From Chthonomonadales bacterium (GTDB lineage: Bacteria; Armatimonadota; Chthonomonadetes; Chthonomonadales; CAJBBX01): a stretch of DNA of 30,599 bases. This document shows positions 5,486-15,622 of the stretch, in pieces. Within the stretch, counting starts at the first letter, position 1; each line of letters begins with the position of its first letter. A model generated the notes under the pieces. That model was not told the DNA's origin and made no database searches. It was given only the letters and a program-made list of their open reading frames with translations. The stretch lies in the NCBI GenBank assembly GCA_040004655.1, contig JBDUAM010000021.1, positions 1-30,599 on the forward strand, given 5' to 3'. Position numbers and translations under genes: made by a program.

Positions 5486-7957
5486 TTGCGACAGGTGAAT
5501 TGGCGAAAGCAGGTCAGATTATTGGGATCAGGATTGGCGGCGCTTCTGCTGTCGACTCTGGTATTGCCAACCCCCGTCGCACATTCCCAGCAGCCGAAAT
5601 CCGGGCTGGATTGGTGGGCATTTCAATCTCCCGTTAAGGCCCCACCACCAAATGTCCTCGGCGCGACCAATCCTATCGATACATTCCTGCGGGCCAAATT
5701 GGCGACAAAGGGGCTGAAATTCGCACCACCTGCGGATCGGGTTACGATCATCCGCCGGGCCACGTTCGACCTGACTGGACTCCCGCCGACTCCCGAGCAG
5801 TTGAATTCCACGTACGAGAAAACCCTCACCGACCTGCTGGCATCTCCACACTATGGTGAACGCTGGGGCAGGTATTGGCTCGACGTGGTCCGCTATGGCG
5901 AGACCGATGGCGGCGAGCACAACTATGAGCGTCCCAACGCTTGGCCTTATCGAGATTACGTGATCGATGCGCTCAATCGCGACCTCCCGTACAACCAGTT
6001 CGTCCGAGAACAGATCGCTGGGGATATTCTCTTTCCAAAAGACTACAGCAAAGTTGCCGCGACCGGATTTCTTGTTTCGGGTCCGTGGGATCAGGTGAGC
6101 GCCGTGCTGAACAAAGACCCCATCATGCGGATGACATCGCGCATGGATGAGCTGGATGACATGGTCACCACGACGTCCGCGACGTTTCTTGGGCTGACCG
6201 TCAACTGCGCGCGATGCCACGATCACAAGTTCGACCCGATCCCCGCCAAAGACTATTACCGAATGGCGGCCGCATTCAGCGGAGCCGGGTTCGGCGAGAA
6301 GAGCATCGCCACCGCCGAAGAGCGCGCACGGTATGACAAAGAGACTTCGCCCATTCGGTCCGAGATATCTAAAGAAACCTCAGCATTGGCAGTTATTGAG
6401 GACAAAGTAGCAACGGGACTGCTTGTCACCAAATATGAGAAGTTCGACGCCAGTCGACGAAACAGTCCGCAGCGAATTCCCGTGAACCAGCTTTACAATC
6501 GAGAATCCTTTGCCCGAACCGAAGCTCGCTACTGGCGAATGTTGATCACGGACCAGCACAAAATCGATCCGCGCATTGATTACTTGAAGTTGAATCCCGT
6601 GGGTTATGTTCATCCACAGTGGAAGTCCGCGAAGTCTGGTTCAACCGACAAGCCTGCCATTCTTGAGATAGACCTCGGCGCGGCCAAACCGGTGAGCGAG
6701 ATCATCTGGTCATCCGACCGATCGACCGGCAAGAAGGAAGGCACCCCATCACTCTATCGCTTTGAGGCGTCAGTGGACGGCGTCAAATGGAGAACGGTCG
6801 CCTCAAACCTCGATCACGTCAGCCGAATTGAATTGGACTTGCCCGAATTATCAGACGAAGATTTCAACGCCGTCCTTACGGAAAAGGACCGACTGGGCAG
6901 GCTACTCCCAAAACTGAGAGTAATCGAATTACAAAAGAAACTTGACGCCATCCCAACTCCGCGCAAGATGTATGCGGTAAATCCGCACAATCCTGAGCAG
7001 GTATCTCTCTTGAAACGAGGGAGTGTGGCAACTCCGATCGAGCTCGTTACACCCGGCGGATTAACGTGTGTGAGACAGATGTCTCCTGATATTTCCGAGA
7101 ATGCAACCCCGACGGAAGGCGAACGGAGACTCGCTCTGGCAGATTGGATTGTAAACCCGAAAAATCCGCTCACAGCGCGCGTGATCGTGAATCGGGTCTG
7201 GTACTACCACTTTGGCGCGGGAATCGTGAATACTCCCAGCGACTTCGGGGTCAACGGAGACAGACCGTCGCACCCGGAGTTGCTCGATTGGTTGGCGGTC
7301 GCGTTCATTGAGCATGGGTGGAGCCTGAAATGGCTGCATCGGCAGATCATGACATCGCAGGCATACCAGCAATCTTCCCTGATGAACCCGGAAGCCGCAA
7401 AAGTCGACGCAGGAAACCGACTGCTCTGGCGAATGCCACTCAAACGGATGGACGCCGAAACCCTGCGCGACTCCATTCTGATGGTCACCGGCAATCTCGA
7501 TTTTAAGGCTGGCGGACCCGGTTTTGCGCTGCACCAGAATAGTGGCAGAGGCTCGTTCATCTATCACGTGCTGGAGAACGATGGTCCCGCCGTCTGGCGA
7601 CGCTCGGTCTATCGGTTCGTGGTTCGCGGCGGCGACAAAGTGCTGCTGGACAGCTTCGATTGTCCCGATCCATCCGTAGCGACCCCTCAGCGAAGCAACT
7701 CCAACACGCCCGTTCAGGCGCTGGCGCTTATGAACAATCAGTTCGTCATTCGGCAGGCCGACCTTTTTGCCAAACGATTGCAGCGGGAAGCTCCGAACTC
7801 GATTCCGGATCAGATCTCCCGGGCTTATCTGCTCGCTTTTGGTCGATTGCCAAAGCCAGATGAGCTGCAATCTGCCCTCAAATTTGTGAAGAGTCAGTCG
7901 CTCAGCCTTTACTGCCGGGCGTTGCTCAATGCCAACGAGTTTATCTACACTCCGTAA
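5486..7957 (+). CDS. DUF1549/DUF1553 (PSCyt2-PSD1) protein with CxxCH motif and a discoidin/F5-8-like insert
   Basis: Signal peptide; IRRATFDLTGLPPT, YGERWGRYWLDVVRYGET, CARCHDHKFDP, NPLTARVIVNRVW, PSHPELLDWLA; insert LEIDLGAAKPVSEI...YRFEASVDGVKW. Confidence 0.92.
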   Translation: MRQVNWRKQVRLLGSGLAALLLSTLVLPTPVAHSQQPKSGLDWWAFQSPVKAPPPNVLGATNPIDTFLRAKLATKGLKFAPPADRVTIIRRATFDLTGLPPTPEQLNSTYEKTLTDLLASPHYGERWGRYWLDVVRYGETDGGEHNYERPNAWPYRDYVIDALNRDLPYNQFVREQIAGDILFPKDYSKVAATGFLVSGPWDQVSAVLNKDPIMRMTSRMDELDDMVTTTSATFLGLTVNCARCHDHKFDPIPAKDYYRMAAAFSGAGFGEKSIATAEERARYDKETSPIRSEISKETSALAVIEDKVATGLLVTKYEKFDASRRNSPQRIPVNQLYNRESFARTEARYWRMLITDQHKIDPRIDYLKLNPVGYVHPQWKSAKSGSTDKPAILEIDLGAAKPVSEIIWSSDRSTGKKEGTPSLYRFEASVDGVKWRTVASNLDHVSRIELDLPELSDEDFNAVLTEKDRLGRLLPKLRVIELQKKLDAIPTPRKMYAVNPHNPEQVSLLKRGSVATPIELVTPGGLTCVRQMSPDISENATPTEGERRLALADWIVNPKNPLTARVIVNRVWYYHFGAGIVNTPSDFGVNGDRPSHPELLDWLAVAFIEHGWSLKWLHRQIMTSQAYQQSSLMNPEAAKVDAGNRLLWRMPLKRMDAETLRDSILMVTGNLDFKAGGPGFALHQNSGRGSFIYHVLENDGPAVWRRSVYRFVVRGGDKVLLDSFDCPDPSVATPQRSNSNTPVQALALMNNQFVIRQADLFAKRLQREAPNSIPDQISRAYLLAFGRLPKPDELQSALKFVKSQSLSLYCRALLNANEFIYTP

Positions 7958-7970
7958 AGGGATCATATCC

Positions 7971-9410
7971 ATGCCGCACGAAAATTGTGAACGCAAAACT
8001 CAAATCCCCACTCGCAGGGAGTTTCTCTGGGAGATCGGCGGCGGTCTGGCAGGGATCGCACTGGCGAGCATGGCTTCGCAAGAGTCAAGTGCCGGCACCA
8101 GAATTGCAGGTTCGAACGGCCTCTCGCACTATGCTGGAAAAGCCAAGCAAGTCATCTTTATCTCCCTTCCGGGCGGGCTGAGCCACGTCGACTCCTTCGA
8201 CTACAAACCCGAACTCTGGAAGCATCACGGGCAAGAGATCGCGGGCGCAAATACCATCGTGCCATTCAACGGTAAGCGGGGGACCGTGTTAAAGAGTCCG
8301 TGGGAGTTTCGACCCTACGGCAAGTCCGGCAAATTCCTGAGTGATCTGCTGCCAAACATCGCAGCTTGTTCCGACGATCTCACGTTCATCCACTCCATGG
8401 TCTCGCGCAGCAACGCACATGGCCCGGCGTTATTCCAGATGTCGACCGGTTTCATTCTCCAGGGGTTTCCGGCGGCGGGATCGTGGATCAGCTACGGACT
8501 CGGTTCGCTCAACAACAATCTGCCCTCGTTCGTCGTTTTGCCGGACACGCGTGGACTTCCGCCATGTGGGTCGGCGCTCTGGGGGAATGGATTTCTTCCG
8601 GCGTCGCATCAGGGAGTCATATTCGGAGAAGAGCGACAACCTATCGCCGATCTGCGTCCGCCCGCGTCCATCACCGGCAGCAACCAGGCGGCGACCTACG
8701 ATCTGCTCGGCCAGATGAATGAGTGGCATCTCAAAGAACATCCGGGCGATGACGCGCTCGCCAGTCGAATCCGAGCTTACGAACTCGCCGCCAAGATGCA
8801 GATCAGCGCGCCGGAAGTGACCAGCATCGCCGGGGAATCGGAGCGAACGAAGGAGATGTACGGCCTCAACAACCCCGTCACTCGATCTTACGGGTACAAC
8901 TGTTTGCTAACGCGAAGGCTGATCGAGCGCGGCGTGAGGTGCGTGCAGCTTTACAACGGCGGACACTTCGGGGAGCCGCGAGTCAACTGGGACGCGCATG
9001 AAGACCTGGTGACCAATCACAATAAGAATGCCGCCATCCTGGATAAGCCGACAGCCGCACTACTCCGAGACCTGAAACAGCGAGGAATGCTCGATGAGAC
9101 TCTGGTCGTCTTCACCACCGAATTCGGCCGATTGCCAATCACCGAAGGCATCGGTGAAGCGGGTCGAGACCACAACCCGGAAGGATTCACCATATTTCTG
9201 GCAGGTGCCGGCATCAGACGAGGCTTCTCCTTCGGCCAGACGGACGAGATGGGCTACCGCGCCGACAAACCAACCTCCATCTACGACCTCCACGCAACTG
9301 TGCTCCACTTGATGGGCCTCGATCACACCAAACTCACCTACTACCACAACGGCTCCAATCGTCGACTGACAGATGTCCATGGTCAGGTGATCCGGGAGAT
9401 TCTGGGTTAA
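7971..9410 (+). CDS. DUF1501 domain protein (Tat-exported, sulfatase/alkaline-phosphatase-like fold)
   Basis: Tat motif TRREFL; GGLSHVDSFDYKP, WDAHE, TTEFGR, GRDHNP. Start moved to ATG 7971, which has an AAAGGGA RBS and lies after the upstream stop. Confidence 0.93.
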   Translation: MPHENCERKTQIPTRREFLWEIGGGLAGIALASMASQESSAGTRIAGSNGLSHYAGKAKQVIFISLPGGLSHVDSFDYKPELWKHHGQEIAGANTIVPFNGKRGTVLKSPWEFRPYGKSGKFLSDLLPNIAACSDDLTFIHSMVSRSNAHGPALFQMSTGFILQGFPAAGSWISYGLGSLNNNLPSFVVLPDTRGLPPCGSALWGNGFLPASHQGVIFGEERQPIADLRPPASITGSNQAATYDLLGQMNEWHLKEHPGDDALASRIRAYELAAKMQISAPEVTSIAGESERTKEMYGLNNPVTRSYGYNCLLTRRLIERGVRCVQLYNGGHFGEPRVNWDAHEDLVTNHNKNAAILDKPTAALLRDLKQRGMLDETLVVFTTEFGRLPITEGIGEAGRDHNPEGFTIFLAGAGIRRGFSFGQTDEMGYRADKPTSIYDLHATVLHLMGLDHTKLTYYHNGSNRRLTDVHGQVIREILG

Positions 9411-9411
9411 G

Positions 9412-9432
9412 CTCTATAGCTTGCCTATAGAG
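9412..9432. other. Perfect 8-bp hairpin right after the DUF1501 stop (possible terminator or binding site)
   Basis: ctctatag-cttgc-ctatagag; no U-tract. Confidence 0.45.
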
Positions 9433-9493
9433 AAGTGCCCCGTGGACTCTACCGAATTGAATGTATTCGAGACAAAACACTTCCATGATGATA

Positions 9494-9521
9494 TGATATA
9501 CTGGAACATAAGCAACTTATG
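9494..9521 (+). promoter_or_regulatory. Extended -10 promoter with inverted repeat for TA copy 1
   Basis: TG-A-TATACT (9494-9502) followed by cataag-caa-cttatg (9507-9521). The -10 end is 45 nt from the TTG start, the same as in copy 2. Confidence 0.5.
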
Positions 9522-9546
9522 CCAGCTTGACCAAGAGGGCATCAAC

Positions 9547-9780
9547 TTGAGCAATTCAGCTTCGAGAATAACAATTAATCCTGATATCTGCTACGGCAAA
9601 CCGACTGTTCGAGGCTTGCGCTACCCGGTCGAGATGCTACCCGAGTTAGTGAGCTCAGGTATGAGCACGGAGGATATCCTCGCAGTTTATGAAGATCTGG
9701 AACGTGAAGATATTCTGGCAGTATTGGCATTTGCAGCCCGGCTGTCGCATGTTAAGCGCCTGGAACCTCTGGCTGCATGA
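9547..9780 (+). CDS. DUF433 antitoxin (VapB45-like), copy 1
   Basis: 77 aa, RITINPDICYGKPTVRGLRYPV; TTG start aligned to copy 2 (13543); GAGGG RBS; 66/77 aa identical to copy 2. Confidence 0.85.
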   Translation: MSNSASRITINPDICYGKPTVRGLRYPVEMLPELVSSGMSTEDILAVYEDLEREDILAVLAFAARLSHVKRLEPLAA

Positions 9781-9917
9781 AATTATTGGTCGACGCACAG
9801 CTTCCTCAGCGTGTTGCGAACCTGTTTCGTATTGCCGGTTACGACGTTGTCCAAACCCTCGATTTGCGGGATGCCAACCGAACTACAAAAAACTGTAGGA
9901 ATAAAATATGCGGATAA
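9777..9917 (+). pseudogene. Truncated DUF5615 PIN-like toxin (VapC45-like), copy 1
   Basis: ATGA overlap with DUF433. MKLLVDAQLPQRVANLFRIAGYDVVQTLDLRDANRTT matches the first 37 aa of 13773-14126 (30/37), then an unrelated 9-aa tail and a stop at 9917. Confidence 0.9.
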
Positions 9918-11479
9918 AATTAATCAATGCACCTCTGGTTTCCACCGTATGTGATCGAACAACTGGTCATCAAATTCCTCTTGGCTTAATGATGCTTGGC
10001 GGGCCGCTTATCGACGCGGGTTACGATGTAGAGCTAATTGACGGCGCCGTTCACCACATGGGTGTTGAAGAGATTGTTAATGGTTGTCGCGGAGCGGACG
10101 TTGTTTTGATTTCGCATGTCGGGTCTACACAGGCTCATCCTTCCTGCATGAGTGTTCTTCGCGCAATTAAGAAGCAAATGCCCAGAGTTTTGACTGTTTA
10201 CGGCGGAGTACATCCCACATATCATTTTAAAGAAATCATGGCTCAGTCTTGCGAGGTCGACATCATCGTCCGCGGCGAAGGCGAAACTACTATTATTGAG
10301 CTGGCGGCTGCAATACGCCAGGGATTGCAAGCTGCAACGAGTGAAATTCCGATGCTCGATCTTGATTTATCAGCCGTTAAGGGAGTTGTCTGGCGCCGTT
10401 CGACAACGAACGATTCTTCCGACCGTAGCAAAATTGTTGTGAATCCAAACCGAGAATTGATCCCTGACATTGGCGTTAATCGAGTCGGGTGGGAATTGGT
10501 ATCCGATTGGAATGCCTATCAGGCTTTTGGCTGGGGTAAAGCGGCCGTCGTTCAGTTTTCACGCGGGTGCCCTCATACGTGTTCTTATTGCGGCCAGTGG
10601 ATGTTCTGGAAAAAGTGGAGATATCGAGACCCTGTAGCCTTTGTAGATGAGATAGAGTGGCTGCACCGCACTCACGGGATACGATTTTTCTGGATTGCGG
10701 ACGAAAACCCTACGACGGACAAAGCGCTCTGGAAACAGGCGCTTGAGGAGATAGGCAGAAGAAATCTGGATATTGGACTTTCTGCGTCTATTCGTACCCA
10801 GGACATTGTGCGCGATGCAGACATCCTGCCAATTTATAAGAGGGCTGGATTTGTATACATTCTCCTCGGCGTTGAAACGGTTACCGATGAGGTGATGGTA
10901 AGGATCCGAAAGAATTCCTCGGTGGATGATGCGTTTGAGGCGATAAGATTGTTGCGAGAAAATGATATTGTTTCCGTCGTGGATTACATGGTTGGTTTGG
11001 AAGATGAAACGTTGAGATCACTGTGGCGAAGCTGCAAGGGCTTGTTAAAATATGATGGGGACCTTCTCAATATACTTTACTTAACTCCCCACGCCTGGAC
11101 ACCCTTAGGAAATGCCACGAAAAGCGCTCCTGTTATGGAGCCGGACATGTGGAAGTGGGATTATCGGCATCAGGTTCTGTCAACGAAGACGCTATCGCCG
11201 ACAACCTTATTCTTGTGTGTGAAGGTGTTGGAGGCATTCTATCACGTCCATCCTCGTCGCTTGTCGAGAATACTATTTGCCCGAGATCGTGTGTTGCGCA
11301 CGCAGCTCCGGTGGACGCTGCTACACACTGTCGGTTGGTTCTGGTTTGAAATCTGGGAACTTTTCGTGGATCGGTTTGTAAAACAGAAATATCGCAATAT
11401 TCGGAGAGAATCCGGCGAAATTATGACGCGAGGCAGAGTACAGACTGCTGCCGCCGGGTCACAACCTCCGCCGGGTTAA
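9908..11479 (+). CDS. Cobalamin-binding radical SAM enzyme, BchE-like family (substrate unknown)
   Basis: N-terminal B12-binding-type domain (IPLGLMMLGG, GGVHPT, IIVRGEGE); CxxxCxxC motif RGCPHTCSYC; ADEN motif. Confidence 0.9.
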   Translation: MRIKLINAPLVSTVCDRTTGHQIPLGLMMLGGPLIDAGYDVELIDGAVHHMGVEEIVNGCRGADVVLISHVGSTQAHPSCMSVLRAIKKQMPRVLTVYGGVHPTYHFKEIMAQSCEVDIIVRGEGETTIIELAAAIRQGLQAATSEIPMLDLDLSAVKGVVWRRSTTNDSSDRSKIVVNPNRELIPDIGVNRVGWELVSDWNAYQAFGWGKAAVVQFSRGCPHTCSYCGQWMFWKKWRYRDPVAFVDEIEWLHRTHGIRFFWIADENPTTDKALWKQALEEIGRRNLDIGLSASIRTQDIVRDADILPIYKRAGFVYILLGVETVTDEVMVRIRKNSSVDDAFEAIRLLRENDIVSVVDYMVGLEDETLRSLWRSCKGLLKYDGDLLNILYLTPHAWTPLGNATKSAPVMEPDMWKWDYRHQVLSTKTLSPTTLFLCVKVLEAFYHVHPRRLSRILFARDRVLRTQLRWTLLHTVGWFWFEIWELFVDRFVKQKYRNIRRESGEIMTRGRVQTAAAGSQPPPG

Positions 11480-11686
11480 TACTATCCATTCTGGGGCAGC
11501 GCGACTCTGTGGTACAGGAGGGTTCGAGAATCAGAAGGTTAATTGCGAAAACAAAATTACGTTTGGGAAGTTCAGTAACGGCGGTCTAGCTGGCGCCCGC
11601 CTAAAGGACCGTCAATATGAGGCACAGCGTAACCGGCTAATTGATTGAAGCAACAAATGGCTAAAAGGTTTATTAGTCCAATTGTT

Positions 11687-12035
11687 TCAATTGTACGGTT
11701 TTCTGTATCCAAGCCATTTATACAAAAATCCGCGATGTCCGGGAATACGTCCGTCAAGATTTCGAGCTAGTTCCTTAACTCTTTGAGACAACGGACCAGT
11801 AGGATCGCCCATATCGTCTAAGGCAAAAAACAATATTCGCAAAATTAAAATTGGGATTGTTTGGTTTTGATTTGCCTGTCAACGTTCCCTTGAGATCCTG
11901 CAATACATGGACCATAACTTCCCGATTAGTCTCATCCCATCCATTCTCCACTTCACGAATGTCAAATTCTGAACTGAAATCCATTATCAAGCGGTCTATT
12001 TCTTTTAGTTCGGATGCAAATTCATGTCTTTTCAT
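11687..12035 (-). pseudogene. Frameshifted small acidic hypothetical protein (115 aa if restored)
   Basis: The ORF stops at 11775 as read. Removing one base from the A6 run at 11825-11830 gives ...NFANIVF-ALDDMGDPTGPLSQRVKELARNLDGRIPGHRGFLYKWLGYRKPYN*, with the stop at 11687-11689. Confidence 0.6.
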
Positions 12036-12096
12036 GTGTACCGTTTATCTTCCTCCACTGGATGGTGTTTCAACCCCAATACGCAATTTCCGACAA

Positions 12097-12528
12097 TTAG
12101 TCATAGTGTGTAACACATTCACGACTGTAACTGATCGGCAGTTTCTCATCCTCCACGAACTCTTCGTTCGGTTGAATTCCAGGTTGACAATCCGGAAATA
12201 GTGTTTCAAATAGTAGCAAGAAAAACGATCTATAATCCTGATCTAACTCGACCACCCTTTCACTACACTCCCACGCATTTTCCCAGAATTTATCGTTCCG
12301 TTCTTGATACTTATTCAAGAAGTAACGAAGAGTATTCTTCAATAGCGTTCTGGCACTGTCCGACCAACTCTCAACGACTGGAACAATTGCGTCTACGATG
12401 AGAAATTTCTGATCGGATATAATCTCCATGTCCAAATTGTAATACGGACTTGTTGTTGGATCATAATCCCAGTCGACAATTGCATATAAAGCCGGTTCAA
12501 TAATCCTCCTGTGTACACGGAGTTTCAT
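12097..12528 (-). CDS. Hypothetical acidic, aromatic-rich protein (143 aa)
   Basis: Strong AAGGAGG RBS; AT-rich ORF; no recognised domain. Confidence 0.75.
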   Translation of the reverse strand: MKLRVHRRIIEPALYAIVDWDYDPTTSPYYNLDMEIISDQKFLIVDAIVPVVESWSDSARTLLKNTLRYFLNKYQERNDKFWENAWECSERVVELDQDYRSFFLLLFETLFPDCQPGIQPNEEFVEDEKLPISYSRECVTHYD

Positions 12529-12593
12529 TGACTAAACCCTCCTTCCATCTGACTGCATAGGCTTTACGTTTTAGGGCATTTGGTTGAACCCGC

Positions 12594-13154
12594 TTAGTTC
12601 CCGAACACGTAGGATTCTGCCGCGGCAAACAACTCATTTGGTCCATACAATCCATAAGGCAAATGGCTGATATTTCCAAGTTCTCCGAACGCATAGCCAT
12701 TCCCTAGCTTAGCCAGAGCAGCTAAAAAATAGAGGAATGTGTTCCATGTCCAGTTGGCGGAACCCCGTTCATGCTCAACACTGAATTCGATTCCCCCACA
12801 GTTCTCCCAATTCGAAATGAGGGAATTGAATTCATTGTTCGCAAAATTGCCTTCAAATTGTTCTAGCAGGGATCGCAGAGGTTCTTCAACTTCCCCATAT
12901 ATCTCGGGGTTATCCACCTCAAACAGCATAAAGTTCACTAGACCCATGCCGTCGTAATTAATAACATATGTATTGTACAATTTTAAATCTGCGTTTGGCG
13001 AAACCTCTACCCCCCATGCCACCGATGATTCCATTGTCAAAAGTGATCGGTCACGCGCCATGTCCACAGGTAACGCACTTATGAACGCCTTGATTATTTC
13101 ACCTGGCCTGGGCAATTCGGTTTTAAGCCACATTACATCAATTGTGATAGGCAT
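12594..13154 (-). CDS. Hypothetical acidic protein (186 aa)
   Basis: Start reassigned to ATG 13154 (GGAGG RBS, MPITIDVMWLK...); AT-rich; no recognised domain. Confidence 0.72.
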   Translation of the reverse strand: MPITIDVMWLKTELPRPGEIIKAFISALPVDMARDRSLLTMESSVAWGVEVSPNADLKLYNTYVINYDGMGLVNFMLFEVDNPEIYGEVEEPLRSLLEQFEGNFANNEFNSLISNWENCGGIEFSVEHERGSANWTWNTFLYFLAALAKLGNGYAFGELGNISHLPYGLYGPNELFAAAESYVFGN

Positions 13155-13250
13155 ATGTTCCTCCGGTCTTTTCTCAACTGTTTTACCATCTTGAGTATTA
13201 TATGCTATGCGGCTCGGGCACCTTATTACCATTGCCGTGGGTGACAATCT

Positions 13251-13291
13251 GAAATAGAAAACCCCGTCGACTCTCTCGAATCGACGGGGTT
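13251..13291 (-). terminator. Intrinsic terminator after the duplicated ahcY tail
   Basis: Stem aaccccgtcgactc / gaatcgacggggtt with a 4-nt loop, followed on the minus strand by ttttctattt. Confidence 0.85.
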
Positions 13292-13311
13292 AATTTACGG
13301 CAGACTAACTC

Positions 13312-13405
13312 TTAATAACGATACGAATCAGGCTTGTACGGACCCTCAACCGGGACCAAGAGGTAGTCGGCCTGCATCGCGGTGAGCGTGGTCAGCTTGG
13401 CGCCG
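13312..13405 (-). pseudogene. ahcY: Duplicated 3' fragment of ahcY (last 30 codons plus stop)
   Basis: Encodes [30 protein letters not shown] versus [30 protein letters not shown] in the intact gene; 81/93 nt identical to 14189-14281. Confidence 0.95.
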
Positions 13406-13467
13406 GCGCTGGCACGAAGCGCCCGGCGCAGACAGCGAAACTCGAGTTGCGCGATGCATCGGTTCAT

Positions 13468-13498
13468 TTGCCAGGCAAATCTTACAATATGTTATAAT
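13468..13498 (+). promoter_or_regulatory. Sigma70-type promoter for TA copy 2
   Basis: Consensus extended -10 TG-T-TATAAT (13490-13498); TTGCCA at 13468-13473 (19-nt spacer, so the -35 role is doubtful). Confidence 0.6.
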
Positions 13499-13542
13499 CA
13501 ACCATACGTACTCGTACTTAGTTCTACTTAAGGAGTCTCCGC

Positions 13543-13776
13543 TTGAGCGGTTCAGCATCGAGAATTACGATCAACCCAGACATCTGCCACGGAAAACCGA
13601 CGGTGCGTGGTTTACGCTACCCGGTCGAGATGGTTCTCGGTCTGCTAAGCTCAGGCATGAGCACGGAGGATATCCTCGCAGATTATGAAGATCTTGAACG
13701 TGAAGATATTATGGCAGTACTGGCATTTGCTACGAGGCTGTCGCAGGTCAAACGGCTGGATCCTCTGGCTGCGTGA
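13543..13776 (+). CDS. DUF433 antitoxin (VapB45-like), copy 2
   Basis: 77 aa, RITINPDICHGKPTVRGLRYPVEMVLGLLSSGMSTEDILADYEDL; AAGGAG RBS; TTG start. Confidence 0.92.
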   Translation: MSGSASRITINPDICHGKPTVRGLRYPVEMVLGLLSSGMSTEDILADYEDLEREDIMAVLAFATRLSQVKRLDPLAA

Positions 13777-14126
13777 AATTCCTGGTTGACGCACAACTTC
13801 CTCGGCGCGTTGCCAACATATTTCGCATTGCCGGTCACGACGTCGTGCACACACTTGATTTGCCTGACCGTAACCGAACTACCGACGCCCAGATATTGGT
13901 AATTGCAGGTCGCGAAGATCGAATTGTTGTCACTAAGGATGCTGACTTTGTTAACTCTTACCTCCTGAACCGGCAACCTCGAAAATTACTGCTTATATCG
14001 ACAGGCAACATAAGCAACTCAGATTTGGAATCATTGTTAAAGCCTAACACATCCGCGATTGCCGAGGCATTCGACTCCGCAGGGATGATCGAGCTGACAC
14101 GAACCGCACTAATCATTCATTCCTAA
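13773..14126 (+). CDS. DUF5615 PIN-like toxin (VapC45-like), intact
   Basis: GTGA overlap with DUF433; MKFLVDAQLP and IVVTKDADF PIN-like acidic motifs. Confidence 0.92.
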   Translation: MKFLVDAQLPRRVANIFRIAGHDVVHTLDLPDRNRTTDAQILVIAGREDRIVVTKDADFVNSYLLNRQPRKLLLISTGNISNSDLESLLKPNTSAIAEAFDSAGMIELTRTALIIHS

Positions 14127-14129
14127 TAC

Positions 14130-14168
14130 AAAAAAATGCCCCGCGATTCCTCATAGGATTCGCGGGGC
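14130..14168 (-). terminator. Intrinsic terminator of ahcY (lies between convergent genes)
   Basis: Stem gccccgcgattcct / aggattcgcggggc (one mismatch) with an A7 tract at 14130-14136, read as a U-tract on the minus strand. Confidence 0.85.
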
Positions 14169-14188
14169 TGATTCTTCCTACTTAACCT

Positions 14189-15622
14189 CTAGTATCGATA
14201 CGAATCTGGCTTGTAAGGACCCTCTACCGGAACCCCGATGTAGTCGGCCTGCTTGGCGGTGAGCGTGGTCAGCTTGGCGCCGATCTTCTCGAGGTGCAGT
14301 CGCGCGACTTCCTCGTCCAGCTTCTTCGGGAGAACGTAGACGCCGACTTCGTAGCGGTCTCGGTTCTTCCAGAGGTCCAGTTGTGCCAGCGTCTGGTTGC
14401 TGAAGCTGTTTGACATCACGAAGCTCGGGTGGCCCGTTGCGCAACCGAGGTTGACCAGTCGACCTTCAGCCAGCATGAAGATGCAGTTGCCATTCGGGAA
14501 GGTGTACATATCGACCTGCGGCTTGATGTTGGTCCGCACGACGCCCGGGGCAGTGTTCAACTTGTCGACCTGGATCTCGTTATCAAAGTGACCAATGTTG
14601 CAGACAATCGCCTGATCCTTCATTTTGGACATGTGCTCGAAGGTGATGATGTCCACGTTTCCGGTGGTCGTTACGTAGAGGTCGGCGGTGCCGAGGGTCT
14701 CTTCGATGGTCGTCACCTGGTAGCCGGCCATGGCCGCCTGCAGGGCGTTGATCGGGTCGACTTCCGTCACGATGACGCGGGCGCCGTTGTTGCTGAGCGA
14801 CTGGGCGGAGCCCTTGCCGACGTCGCCATAACCGCAGACGACTGCAACTTTTCCACTTAGCATCACGTCGGTGGCGCGCTTGATACCGTCGACCAGCGAC
14901 TCGCGGCAGCCGTAAAGGTTGTCGAACTTGGACTTGGTCACCGAGTCATTCACGTTGATAGCGGGAACAAGTAGCTTGCCCTGCTCCTGCATCTTGTACA
15001 GTCGATGCACGCCCGTCGTGGTCTCCTCGGAGACGCCACGCCAATTGGCGACAACGTTGTTCCATCGTCGAGGATTGCTGGAGTAGACGCTCTTAAGCAG
15101 GTCCTTGATGACGGATTCTTCATGGCTTTCGCTTGCGCTGTTTACCCAGCTTGCGTCGCCATTCTCAAGGTCGTAACCCTTGTGGATGAGCAGGGTAGCG
15201 TCGCCACCGTCGTCCACGATCAATTCGGGTCCCTTGCCGCCTTCAAACGTGAGCGCCTGGTCAGTACACCACCAGTACTCTTCCAACGATTCGCCCTTCC
15301 ATGCAAAGACCGGAACGCCCGTTGCAGCGATGGCCGCGGCGGCATGGTCTTGCGTGGAGAAGATGTTGCAGCTGCACCATCGAACGTTAGCGCCGAGGTC
15401 GACGAGTGTTTCGATGAGTACGGCCGTCTGGATGGTCATGTGGAGCGACCCCATGATGCGAACTCCCAGCAGCGGCTTGGACTCAGCATATTTGCGGCGA
15501 ATAGACATGAGGCCCGGCATCTCAAATTCGGCGATTGAGATCTCTTTGCGGCCCCATTCGGCGAGGCTAATATCGGCGACCTTGTAAGGCAGGGTCGTGA
15601 TTTGTTCCAAAGTAGTTGACAT
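14189..15622 (-). CDS. ahcY: Adenosylhomocysteinase (SAH hydrolase)
   Basis: [54 protein letters not shown]-binding [26 protein letters not shown]; AGGAGG RBS. Confidence 0.99.

Follow-up and report, generated by a model that had tools for sequence, protein, structure and literature searches.

The DNA analyzed here is the entire contig JBDUAM010000021.1 of a Chthonomonadales bacterium (30,599 nucleotides, called the window below). The subject is ahcY, the gene for S-adenosyl-L-homocysteine hydrolase, together with the toxin–antitoxin (TA) genes and the cargo beyond its 3′ end. The stretch between the DUF1501 gene and ahcY is best explained as a layered record of recombinase-free insertions at the ahcY 3′ end. 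In the Chthonomonadales, this gene end is best explained as a recurrent landing site for TA, restriction–modification (R-M) and immunity modules. In the window, a 0.78-kb DUF433/DUF5615 operon, intact and with a promoter and terminator of its own, lay between live ahcY and a displaced copy of its last 30 codons. Past the displaced tail there were an older terminator, 3.4 kb of cargo with lower G+C, and the remains of a sister TA operon, the toxin gene of which was severed by the cargo.

Structure of the two units

The window belongs to a metagenome-assembled genome (MAG) of 628 contigs with 2.3% contamination, and genes were called by Pfam profile search. ahcY (14189–15622, minus strand) scored 508 bits and was the genome's single full copy; a search of the same genome otherwise returned only the tail fragment. 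Exact-protein look-ups with ahcY and DUF5615b found no other contig. The live copy of the repeated tail, located by the repeat finder and by codon comparison, spanned 14183–14282 on the minus strand. Terminator 2 (14138–14170, minus strand) followed; it is a hairpin (z −5.45) whose U7 run lies on the ahcY strand, and it is common to ahcY and the TA operon. The operon itself (13543–14126, plus strand) was intact and convergent with ahcY. Its two genes, DUF433b (13543–13776) and DUF5615b (13773–14126), both on the plus strand, overlapped by 4 nt and scored 85.9 and 86.0 bits. Both families were above their cut-offs, which together with the overlapping genes agrees with type II TA families, so DUF433b/DUF5615b is a predicted toxin–antitoxin pair. 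A promoter region with a TGnTATAAT motif, found by reading the sequence, preceded the operon (13487–13542, plus strand), and an 81-nt junction segment (13406–13486) separated it from the displaced tail.

The displaced ahcY tail (13306–13405, minus strand) consisted of the last 30 codons, the stop codon and 6 nt. Beyond it was terminator 1 (13260–13291, minus strand), the former ahcY terminator, with a 14-bp stem and then a U run. The far side of the cargo held what remained of unit 1. Its promoter region (9491–9546, plus strand) had a TG-extended −10 element, and a promoter scan gave a promoter-like site at 9469–9497. The antitoxin-type gene DUF433a (9547–9780, plus strand, 73.9 bits) was intact. 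The DUF5615 (PIN-like) toxin gene was reduced to a stump of 46 aa (9777–9917, plus strand), which covered only profile positions 1–31 and scored 22.5 bits, slightly below the cut-off. Similarity of the stump to copy b stopped at 9886, where the BLAST repeat ended. Unit 1 has thus retained the antitoxin alone.

Divergence of the two repeats

Both repeats reported in the initial annotation were real, and its gene calls held. The repeat finder placed the TA repeat at 9546–9845 and 13542–13841 with 83% identity, and BLAST extended it to 9546–9886 against 13542–13882 (341 nt, 81.8%). The ahcY tail repeat (13306–13405 against 14183–14282) was 100 nt long with 86% identity at a spacing of 877, and 88% identical over the 93 coding nt. 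The codon count gave eight synonymous and three non-synonymous differences plus the boundary codon, in line with the mostly synonymous differences noted earlier. The promoter regions were also alike and the left edges unlike, as had been claimed. The 56 nt upstream of the start codon (9491–9546 against 13487–13542) were similar between the units with z 3.9, whereas a global alignment of the leftmost 80 nt, the spacer 9411–9490, with 13406–13486 was no better than with shuffles (z 0.6). The 81-nt junction segment had no source elsewhere in the genome by blastn and tblastx. Both terminators formed strong hairpins (z about −5.5) that led, on the ahcY strand, into a U run, and were only weakly similar to each other (z 3.75).

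DUF433a and DUF433b shared 86% protein identity. Between TA-a and TA-b, dS was about 0.75 and dN/dS about 0.10, which is what orthologues of two related lineages would look like. In a search of 5.8 billion proteins, TA-a and TA-b were mutual closest relatives and the next toxin homologue was 73% identical. No DUF5615 homologue exceeded that identity, and therefore no donor or sister locus was present in the collections searched; the genome gave no other DNA-level match to TA-a or TA-b. Had the repeats been of clearly different ages, the link between them drawn in the initial annotation would have been lost, but their synonymous divergence showed no clear difference (Fisher p 0.16).

A 27-nt exact run (14256–14282 and 13379–13405) ended exactly at the junction side of the tail repeat, which elsewhere was 82% identical. 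Such a run would arise by chance with a probability of about 0.02 at a fixed end and about 0.23 anywhere in the repeat, and this one may mark a crossover patch.

Displaced ahcY tails in related genomes

The family contained two kinds of ahcY. The 477-aa type of the window occurred in five of its 24 genomes. In the remaining genomes ahcY had about 420–440 aa and was only 43–46% identical to the 477-aa form, which suggests from the sequences that at some point in the evolution of the family a distant homologue took the place of ahcY. A metagenome scan with ahcY found few close relatives, the best with 86% identity.

At least five other lineages had fragments of the ahcY 3′ end, of 29 to about 170 codons, further downstream than the gene itself, so that six lineages including the window carried one to two such fragments beyond the live gene. 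Among the four other genomes with the 477-aa type, G007 and G005 had extra downstream fragments. In G007, ahcY was followed by HicA and a partner gene, an HNH protein, DUF695, a 38-codon tail copy, Uma2 and a second ahcY fragment. The G007 repeat was 117 nt long at 89% identity, and its second fragment was 97.5% identical to live ahcY. In G005, a HigBA-like pair (HTH_37 and Gp49) lay between ahcY and a 28-codon tail copy, with a repeat of 148 nt that included the terminator. The assemblies of the other two genomes, G002 and G015, broke at or just after ahcY (contigs C274 and C378 in G015 and C730 in G002, with ends at residues 426 and 410, or 415 nt beyond), which is consistent with repeats or strain variation at the locus. 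A 14-nt stretch of the terminator 1 stem-loop was identical to the ahcY terminator of G002. A further ahcY fragment was found in G066 and G056 on one shared contig.

The metagenome contig L110 agreed with genome G048 in layout and gene lengths. Its insert held a type II m5C methylase gene and a convergent 498-aa gene, probably a type II R-M system judging by these genes, between flanking 165-nt repeats with four mismatches. A Tannerella MAG (L103) carried an insert with Imm30 and three unnamed genes. A 147-nt stretch over the stop codon and terminator was present once in T. forsythia ATCC 43037 (L101) and twice in the MAG, where the two copies bracketed the 3.57-kb insert. T. forsythia ATCC 43037 is therefore a clean empty site. 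A second empty state is likely in G015, where Uma2 directly followed ahcY, while in G007 and G005 Uma2 stood after the displaced tail.

Across these relatives the locus varied in state and cargo, and some sites were apparently empty, so the arrangement is not fixed and the earlier proposal that the ahcY end accumulates cargo is largely borne out. The further proposal that TA modules mark the site was too narrow. The readable DNA between gene and fragment held HicAB or a HigBA-like pair in some cases and Imm30 genes or a probable type II R-M system in others, which means that immunity genes and a probable R-M system use the ahcY end too. Outside the order the tail signature was rare: it was found in one of about 80 genome loci of other phyla (the Tannerella MAG) and in one of the 54 metagenome loci with enough downstream sequence (L110).

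Some variation was seen close to these loci. In the Tannerella MAG, two open reading frames (ORFs; L103:11579–11932 and 12977–13330) were about 90% identical in their N-terminal part and then divergent, a pattern which, by analogy, would be typical of polymorphic toxin or immunity loci. L103:1–9942 and L101:1–9942 aligned from 58 nt upstream of the ahcY start onward and not before, so the upstream side of ahcY is also variable between both genomes. Genome G047 had three copies of an internal ahcY fragment (C63:84434–84721, C14:5167–5454 and C13:5045–5332), one of them 5 kb downstream of the full gene. The fragment corresponds to residues 190–285 and was 81–82% identical to the window protein; it may have been captured in a repeated element.

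Recombinase and integron searches

The statement in the initial annotation that no integrase lies nearby proved correct. The contig contained no integrase, as the genome's six matches to Phage_integrase (PF00589, tyrosine recombinase) were all on other contigs, and an integrase on the contig was accordingly rejected. Pfam searches of the insert ORFs found no recombinase, transposase, integrase or phage gene in any insert examined. The annotation had also allowed for mobilization in trans, and nothing points to a recombinase acting in that way.

To count as attC sites, the unit boundaries had to show an imperfect hairpin with paired RYYYAAC and GTTRRRY cores. Between 9300 and 14400, neither strand of the window gave candidate attC pairs. 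An integron reading was rejected on the lack of attC-like sites in this interval and of an integron integrase on the contig.

The control locus for this search, in which sites were detected, was L197:745–1650 (GCA_030446525.1, JAUJNC010000207.1). It carried a DUF433/DUF5615 pair with a toxin 67% identical to that of the window. The pair lay in a repeated unit of about 798 bp, bounded by imperfect hairpins of about 90 nt with GCCCAAC ... GTTGGGC ends, which by their sequence look like integron attC sites. An adjoining ankyrin gene stood in a similar unit.

Copies made in place or displaced alleles

Each leftover tail was closest to the ahcY of its own genome (85–100% identity, against 62–82% between genomes). 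This result indicates that any donor was a close relative and excludes a distant one. A distant-lineage origin of the tail copies was therefore dropped. Of the earlier idea that the tail came from another lineage, the part that stands is its fit with the synonymous bias, provided that the lineage was closely related.

Synonymous and non-synonymous differences were counted in five tails. The ratios were 7 : 4 in the window tail, 8 : 3 in the G007 tail copy, 8 : 2 plus a stop in the G005 tail, 3 : 0 in the L110 tail, and 4 : 1 in the second G007 fragment. The pooled tails showed 30 synonymous against 11 non-synonymous differences, while decay in place would be expected to give about 55–60% non-synonymous differences (pooled p 1e-5 to 2e-3). 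The few non-synonymous changes fell on the displaced copies at invariant residues. In the window tail they were K>M, I>L and G>L at residues invariant in 15 orthologues, and in G005 one change produced a stop. The synonymous bias, together with the changes at invariant residues, makes the displaced tails look like former working alleles that decayed briefly. The displaced pieces thus look like alleles which, on codon evidence, would have been functional in some genome for most of the divergence time. Both terminators remained perfect hairpins though their sequences differ, and this was counted as a further point for former working alleles.

Proposed mechanism

We regard it as about an even chance that the TA–terminator–ahcY end of a related lineage entered the window through an ahcY-anchored recombination and took the place of the resident tail. 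The donor would be a close relative that still carried the arrangement promoter, TA, terminator and ahcY, and its DNA would have entered probably by transformation. At one end, homologous recombination would take place inside conserved ahcY; at the other end, illegitimate joining at 13405/13406 would fall within the tail of the resident ahcY. From then on the new ahcY end, together with terminator 2 and TA-b, would serve as the working copy, and the resident tail, terminator 1 and all beyond would be shifted downstream. The 81 nt at 13406–13486 would represent the end of the donor fragment. The cargo might come from an earlier, similar event with its far end in the resident toxin gene at about 9886. 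The TA, R-M and immunity content would persist as such modules resist loss.

This mechanism is supported by the recurrence of the pattern without a recombinase, its rarity elsewhere, the empty sites, the allele-like tails, the kinship of TA-a and TA-b, the lack of an integrase and of attC sites, and the precedents discussed below.

Several observations weigh against it. In the window alone, the synonymous bias was not significant (p 0.09–0.27). The search for a donor-like genome found none, with the nearest ahcY at 89% protein identity and no close TA homologue. Sliding-window identity with nine relatives gave no mosaic breakpoint in ahcY, a test without power, as these relatives are about equally distant. 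The genome encoded ComEC and a weak DprA match, which are both common and not diagnostic of natural competence. The nearly equal spacing from the unit boundary to the TTG start (136 and 137 nt) is left unexplained. The recent cases had near-identical repeats, and both Tannerella copies carried the same five differences from the empty-site strain. A foreign tail explains the Tannerella repeats no better, and perhaps less well, than a duplication of the recipient's target or a same-population donor would. The L110 mismatches clustered in the 5′ third of the repeat and could stem from allelic exchange that affected live ahcY afterwards. Both of the youngest cases could also be true duplications of recipient sequence.

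Alternative explanations

In-situ tandem duplication was one of the two origins offered in the initial annotation. An ancestral 0.88-kb unit of promoter, TA, terminator and ahcY tail would have doubled head to tail, the copies would have diverged in place, and cargo would later have replaced most of the distal toxin gene. The units were indeed homologous over the promoter, DUF433, the 5′ part of DUF5615, the terminator and the tail. The two repeats did not differ clearly in synonymous divergence, and the equal boundary-to-start spacing also speaks for a duplication. The synonymous to non-synonymous ratio of the window by itself does not reject it. The other origin, an accumulating site at the ahcY end, was largely borne out. 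However, the 81 nt to the right of the junction were unlike 9411–9490, although neutral divergence at this level should stay detectable. The displaced tail had only four non-synonymous changes in 67 sites, whereas the adjoining terminator was far more diverged. At the other loci, where the tail signature recurred, the inserts were unrelated and the far side lacked a paralogous module. A perfect 0.88-kb repeat would also be expected to collapse well before 13–18% divergence was reached. We consider a tandem duplication unlikely, with some chance of being right.

A true long target duplication appears rather improbable. Here a free TA cassette (13406–14182) would have entered a staggered break across the ahcY stop codon by a host- or module-driven mechanism, and about 100–150 nt of the recipient would have been copied; the differences would have arisen later, partly by allelic exchange in the live gene. 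The filled and empty Tannerella pair fits this course well, as it amounts to a 147-nt duplication of the recipient's own variant, and L110 and the second G007 fragment were at least 97.5% identical to their live counterparts. Nobusato 2000 and Furuta 2010 (PMC2853133) interpret such repeats in the same manner. This course does not account for the kinship of the cassette with the TA operon already resident next to it, of which no nearer relative is known. It also needs extra allelic exchanges through tail and terminator to account for the synonymous bias and for terminators that are diverged yet intact.

Site-specific integration by a recombinase acting in trans would make the ahcY tail an attB site and would require small integrase-less elements that carry attP. 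Like those of many integrase-borne islands, the repeats cover the 3′ end of a gene; six tyrosine recombinase genes were present on other contigs of the genome, and the repeats of the window, G007 and G005 had upstream boundaries within about nine codons of one another. Nevertheless, fragments of 29 to about 170 codons leave no common core, and the downstream boundaries varied from the stop codon to past the terminator. Together with inserts that lack a recombinase and a window that lacks attC-like sites, this makes integration in trans very improbable.

Joining of two co-occurring strains with different ahcY-downstream regions into one contig is hardly credible: the source MAG is fragmented and slightly contaminated and the relatives' assemblies often broke at ahcY, but the longest exact run between the copies (27 nt) is too short to mislead the usual final k-mers, a de Bruijn mis-join would run on into the ahcY body and not into an 81-nt segment, the damaging changes at invariant residues mark tail 1 as a real pseudo-fragment, and equivalent structures occurred in independent assemblies, also inside long contigs.

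Comparison with known systems

Insertion with long target duplication of R-M gene complexes was reportedly described by Nobusato et al. in 2000 (Gene 259:99). The locus belongs to this known kind of insertion, the mechanism of which is unexplained. Furuta, Abe and Kobayashi 2010 (PMC2853133) reported R-M units without a mobility gene, flanked by long direct repeats of variable length, often over a start or stop codon, with the target gene left intact. The loci described here are similar: the modules are shorter than 20 kb and lack a mobility gene, the direct repeats exceed 30 bp and vary in length, and the repeats span the stop codon of an intact target gene. In the window, the 100-nt repeat with 86% identity flanked a 777-nt TA segment, and the repeats at the related loci measured 117–165 nt. 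L110 with its probable type II R-M system and the filled/empty comparison in Tannerella are further points in common. An empty site was found for the Tannerella insert (L103 against L101) and is suggested for G005 and G007 by the ahcY–Uma2 junction of G015; the relatives of the window belong to other genera. The loci differ from the published R-M insertions in that the window insert is a DUF433/DUF5615 TA operon and most cargos are TA or immunity genes, with R-M only in L110. In addition, the same gene end was hit in several genera, and the older repeats differed mainly at synonymous sites. The latter suggests, from codon comparison, that the "duplicate" may often be a displaced allele rather than a copy made on insertion.

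C-terminal displacement at rhs loci was reportedly described by Jackson et al. in 2009. In Vibrio, arrays of type VI secretion system (T6SS) effector and immunity genes have been attributed to sequential displacement by homology-facilitated illegitimate recombination (Kirchberger et al. 2017, PMC5361080). The proposed mechanism would, by analogy, work like this C-terminal displacement. In both cases a conserved upstream gene would serve as the homologous anchor without a recombinase, the incoming DNA would supply a new gene end and a module, and the former 3′ end and immunity genes would be shifted downstream, where they pile up as orphans. In all six lineages, displaced 3′ fragments lay stacked behind a conserved anchor gene. 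Unlike the rhs and T6SS loci, the anchor here is a housekeeping enzyme with a conserved C-terminus and not a polymorphic toxin with a variable tip. The displaced piece is therefore a near-copy of the live end and not a different toxin domain.

Integrase-borne genomic islands use gene 3′ ends, with tRNA, tmRNA and protein-coding genes as targets. As in such islands, direct repeats of the target 3′ end flanked the inserts and the gene was kept intact. In contrast to them, no insert had an integrase within or close to it, and the repeats varied in length and had no core in common. Integron TA cassettes resemble the window in being sub-kilobase, self-contained, array-stabilizing TA units in tandem. 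They differ in their attC sites and integron integrase, both missing here as shown above, and the repeats of the window are ahcY coding sequence.

The spread of TA and addiction modules between chromosomes without mobility genes of their own is still poorly explained. This locus offers several layers on one contig, one gene end used in at least six lineages, and an empty site in a cultured strain. What it adds to the known pattern is that one housekeeping gene was hit repeatedly in different genera, that the layers lie on one contig, and that synonymous bias was used as a test. Repeats biased to synonymous sites are a clue for separating a target copied at insertion from an old allele displaced by incoming DNA. 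If the displaced-allele explanation holds widely, the long "target duplications" of R-M systems would be scars of one-sided homologous recombination, and conserved essential genes would be entry ports for accessory DNA.

A broader proposal, which we put forward tentatively and as doubtful, is that recombinase-free TA, R-M and immunity cassettes form a class of mobile DNA whose handle is the 3′ end of a conserved essential gene with its terminator. In that case, host homologous recombination would paste the cassettes behind that gene in related species, and the cassettes would stack as layered arrays and be exchanged or lost through their repeats. The attachment site would then be core-gene homology and not a recombinase site.

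Cargo and flanking genes

The cargo between the units is a BchE-like radical SAM gene followed by immunity-like small genes. Its G+C was 0.39–0.52, compared with 0.55–0.62 in the flanks. The B12-binding radical SAM gene (9908–11479, plus strand) matched the Pfam families B12-binding and Radical_SAM, and its start lay 21 nt past the break in the toxin gene. Against TIGR02026 (BchE) the protein scored 385 bits, under the cut-off of 481, and a 38%-identical paralogue was encoded on contig C403.

Three small genes followed, all on the minus strand, and the unknown cargo genes were searched additionally against NCBIfam, PADLOC and Atlas (predicted folds). The 86-aa gene (11775–12035) is probably an orphan immunity gene, as its protein similarity suggests. 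The 114-aa ORF with which it shares 49% identity came immediately after a 990-aa RHS-repeat protein on contig C514 of the same genome (L196:1720–5043), and a 65-nt stretch on C514 was 82% identical to window 11684–11748. The 143-aa gene (12097–12528) had no Pfam, NCBIfam or PADLOC match. Its protein had a confident predicted fold in Atlas, where the nearest clusters carried no name and gave faint CdiI-type hints. The 186-aa gene (12594–13154) likewise had no match in Pfam, NCBIfam or PADLOC, and Atlas gave leads only, with a confident predicted fold of no named family. Reading of the sequence placed its likely start at the ATG at 13154, with GGAGG ahead. Immunity-type cargo in the window fits the Imm30 insert in Tannerella.

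The left flank was formed by the DUF1501 gene (7929–9410, plus strand, Pfam 459 bits). It is the partner in a conserved pair of DUF1549/DUF1553 and DUF1501 genes, which was kept in the relatives, where it lay on contigs without ahcY.

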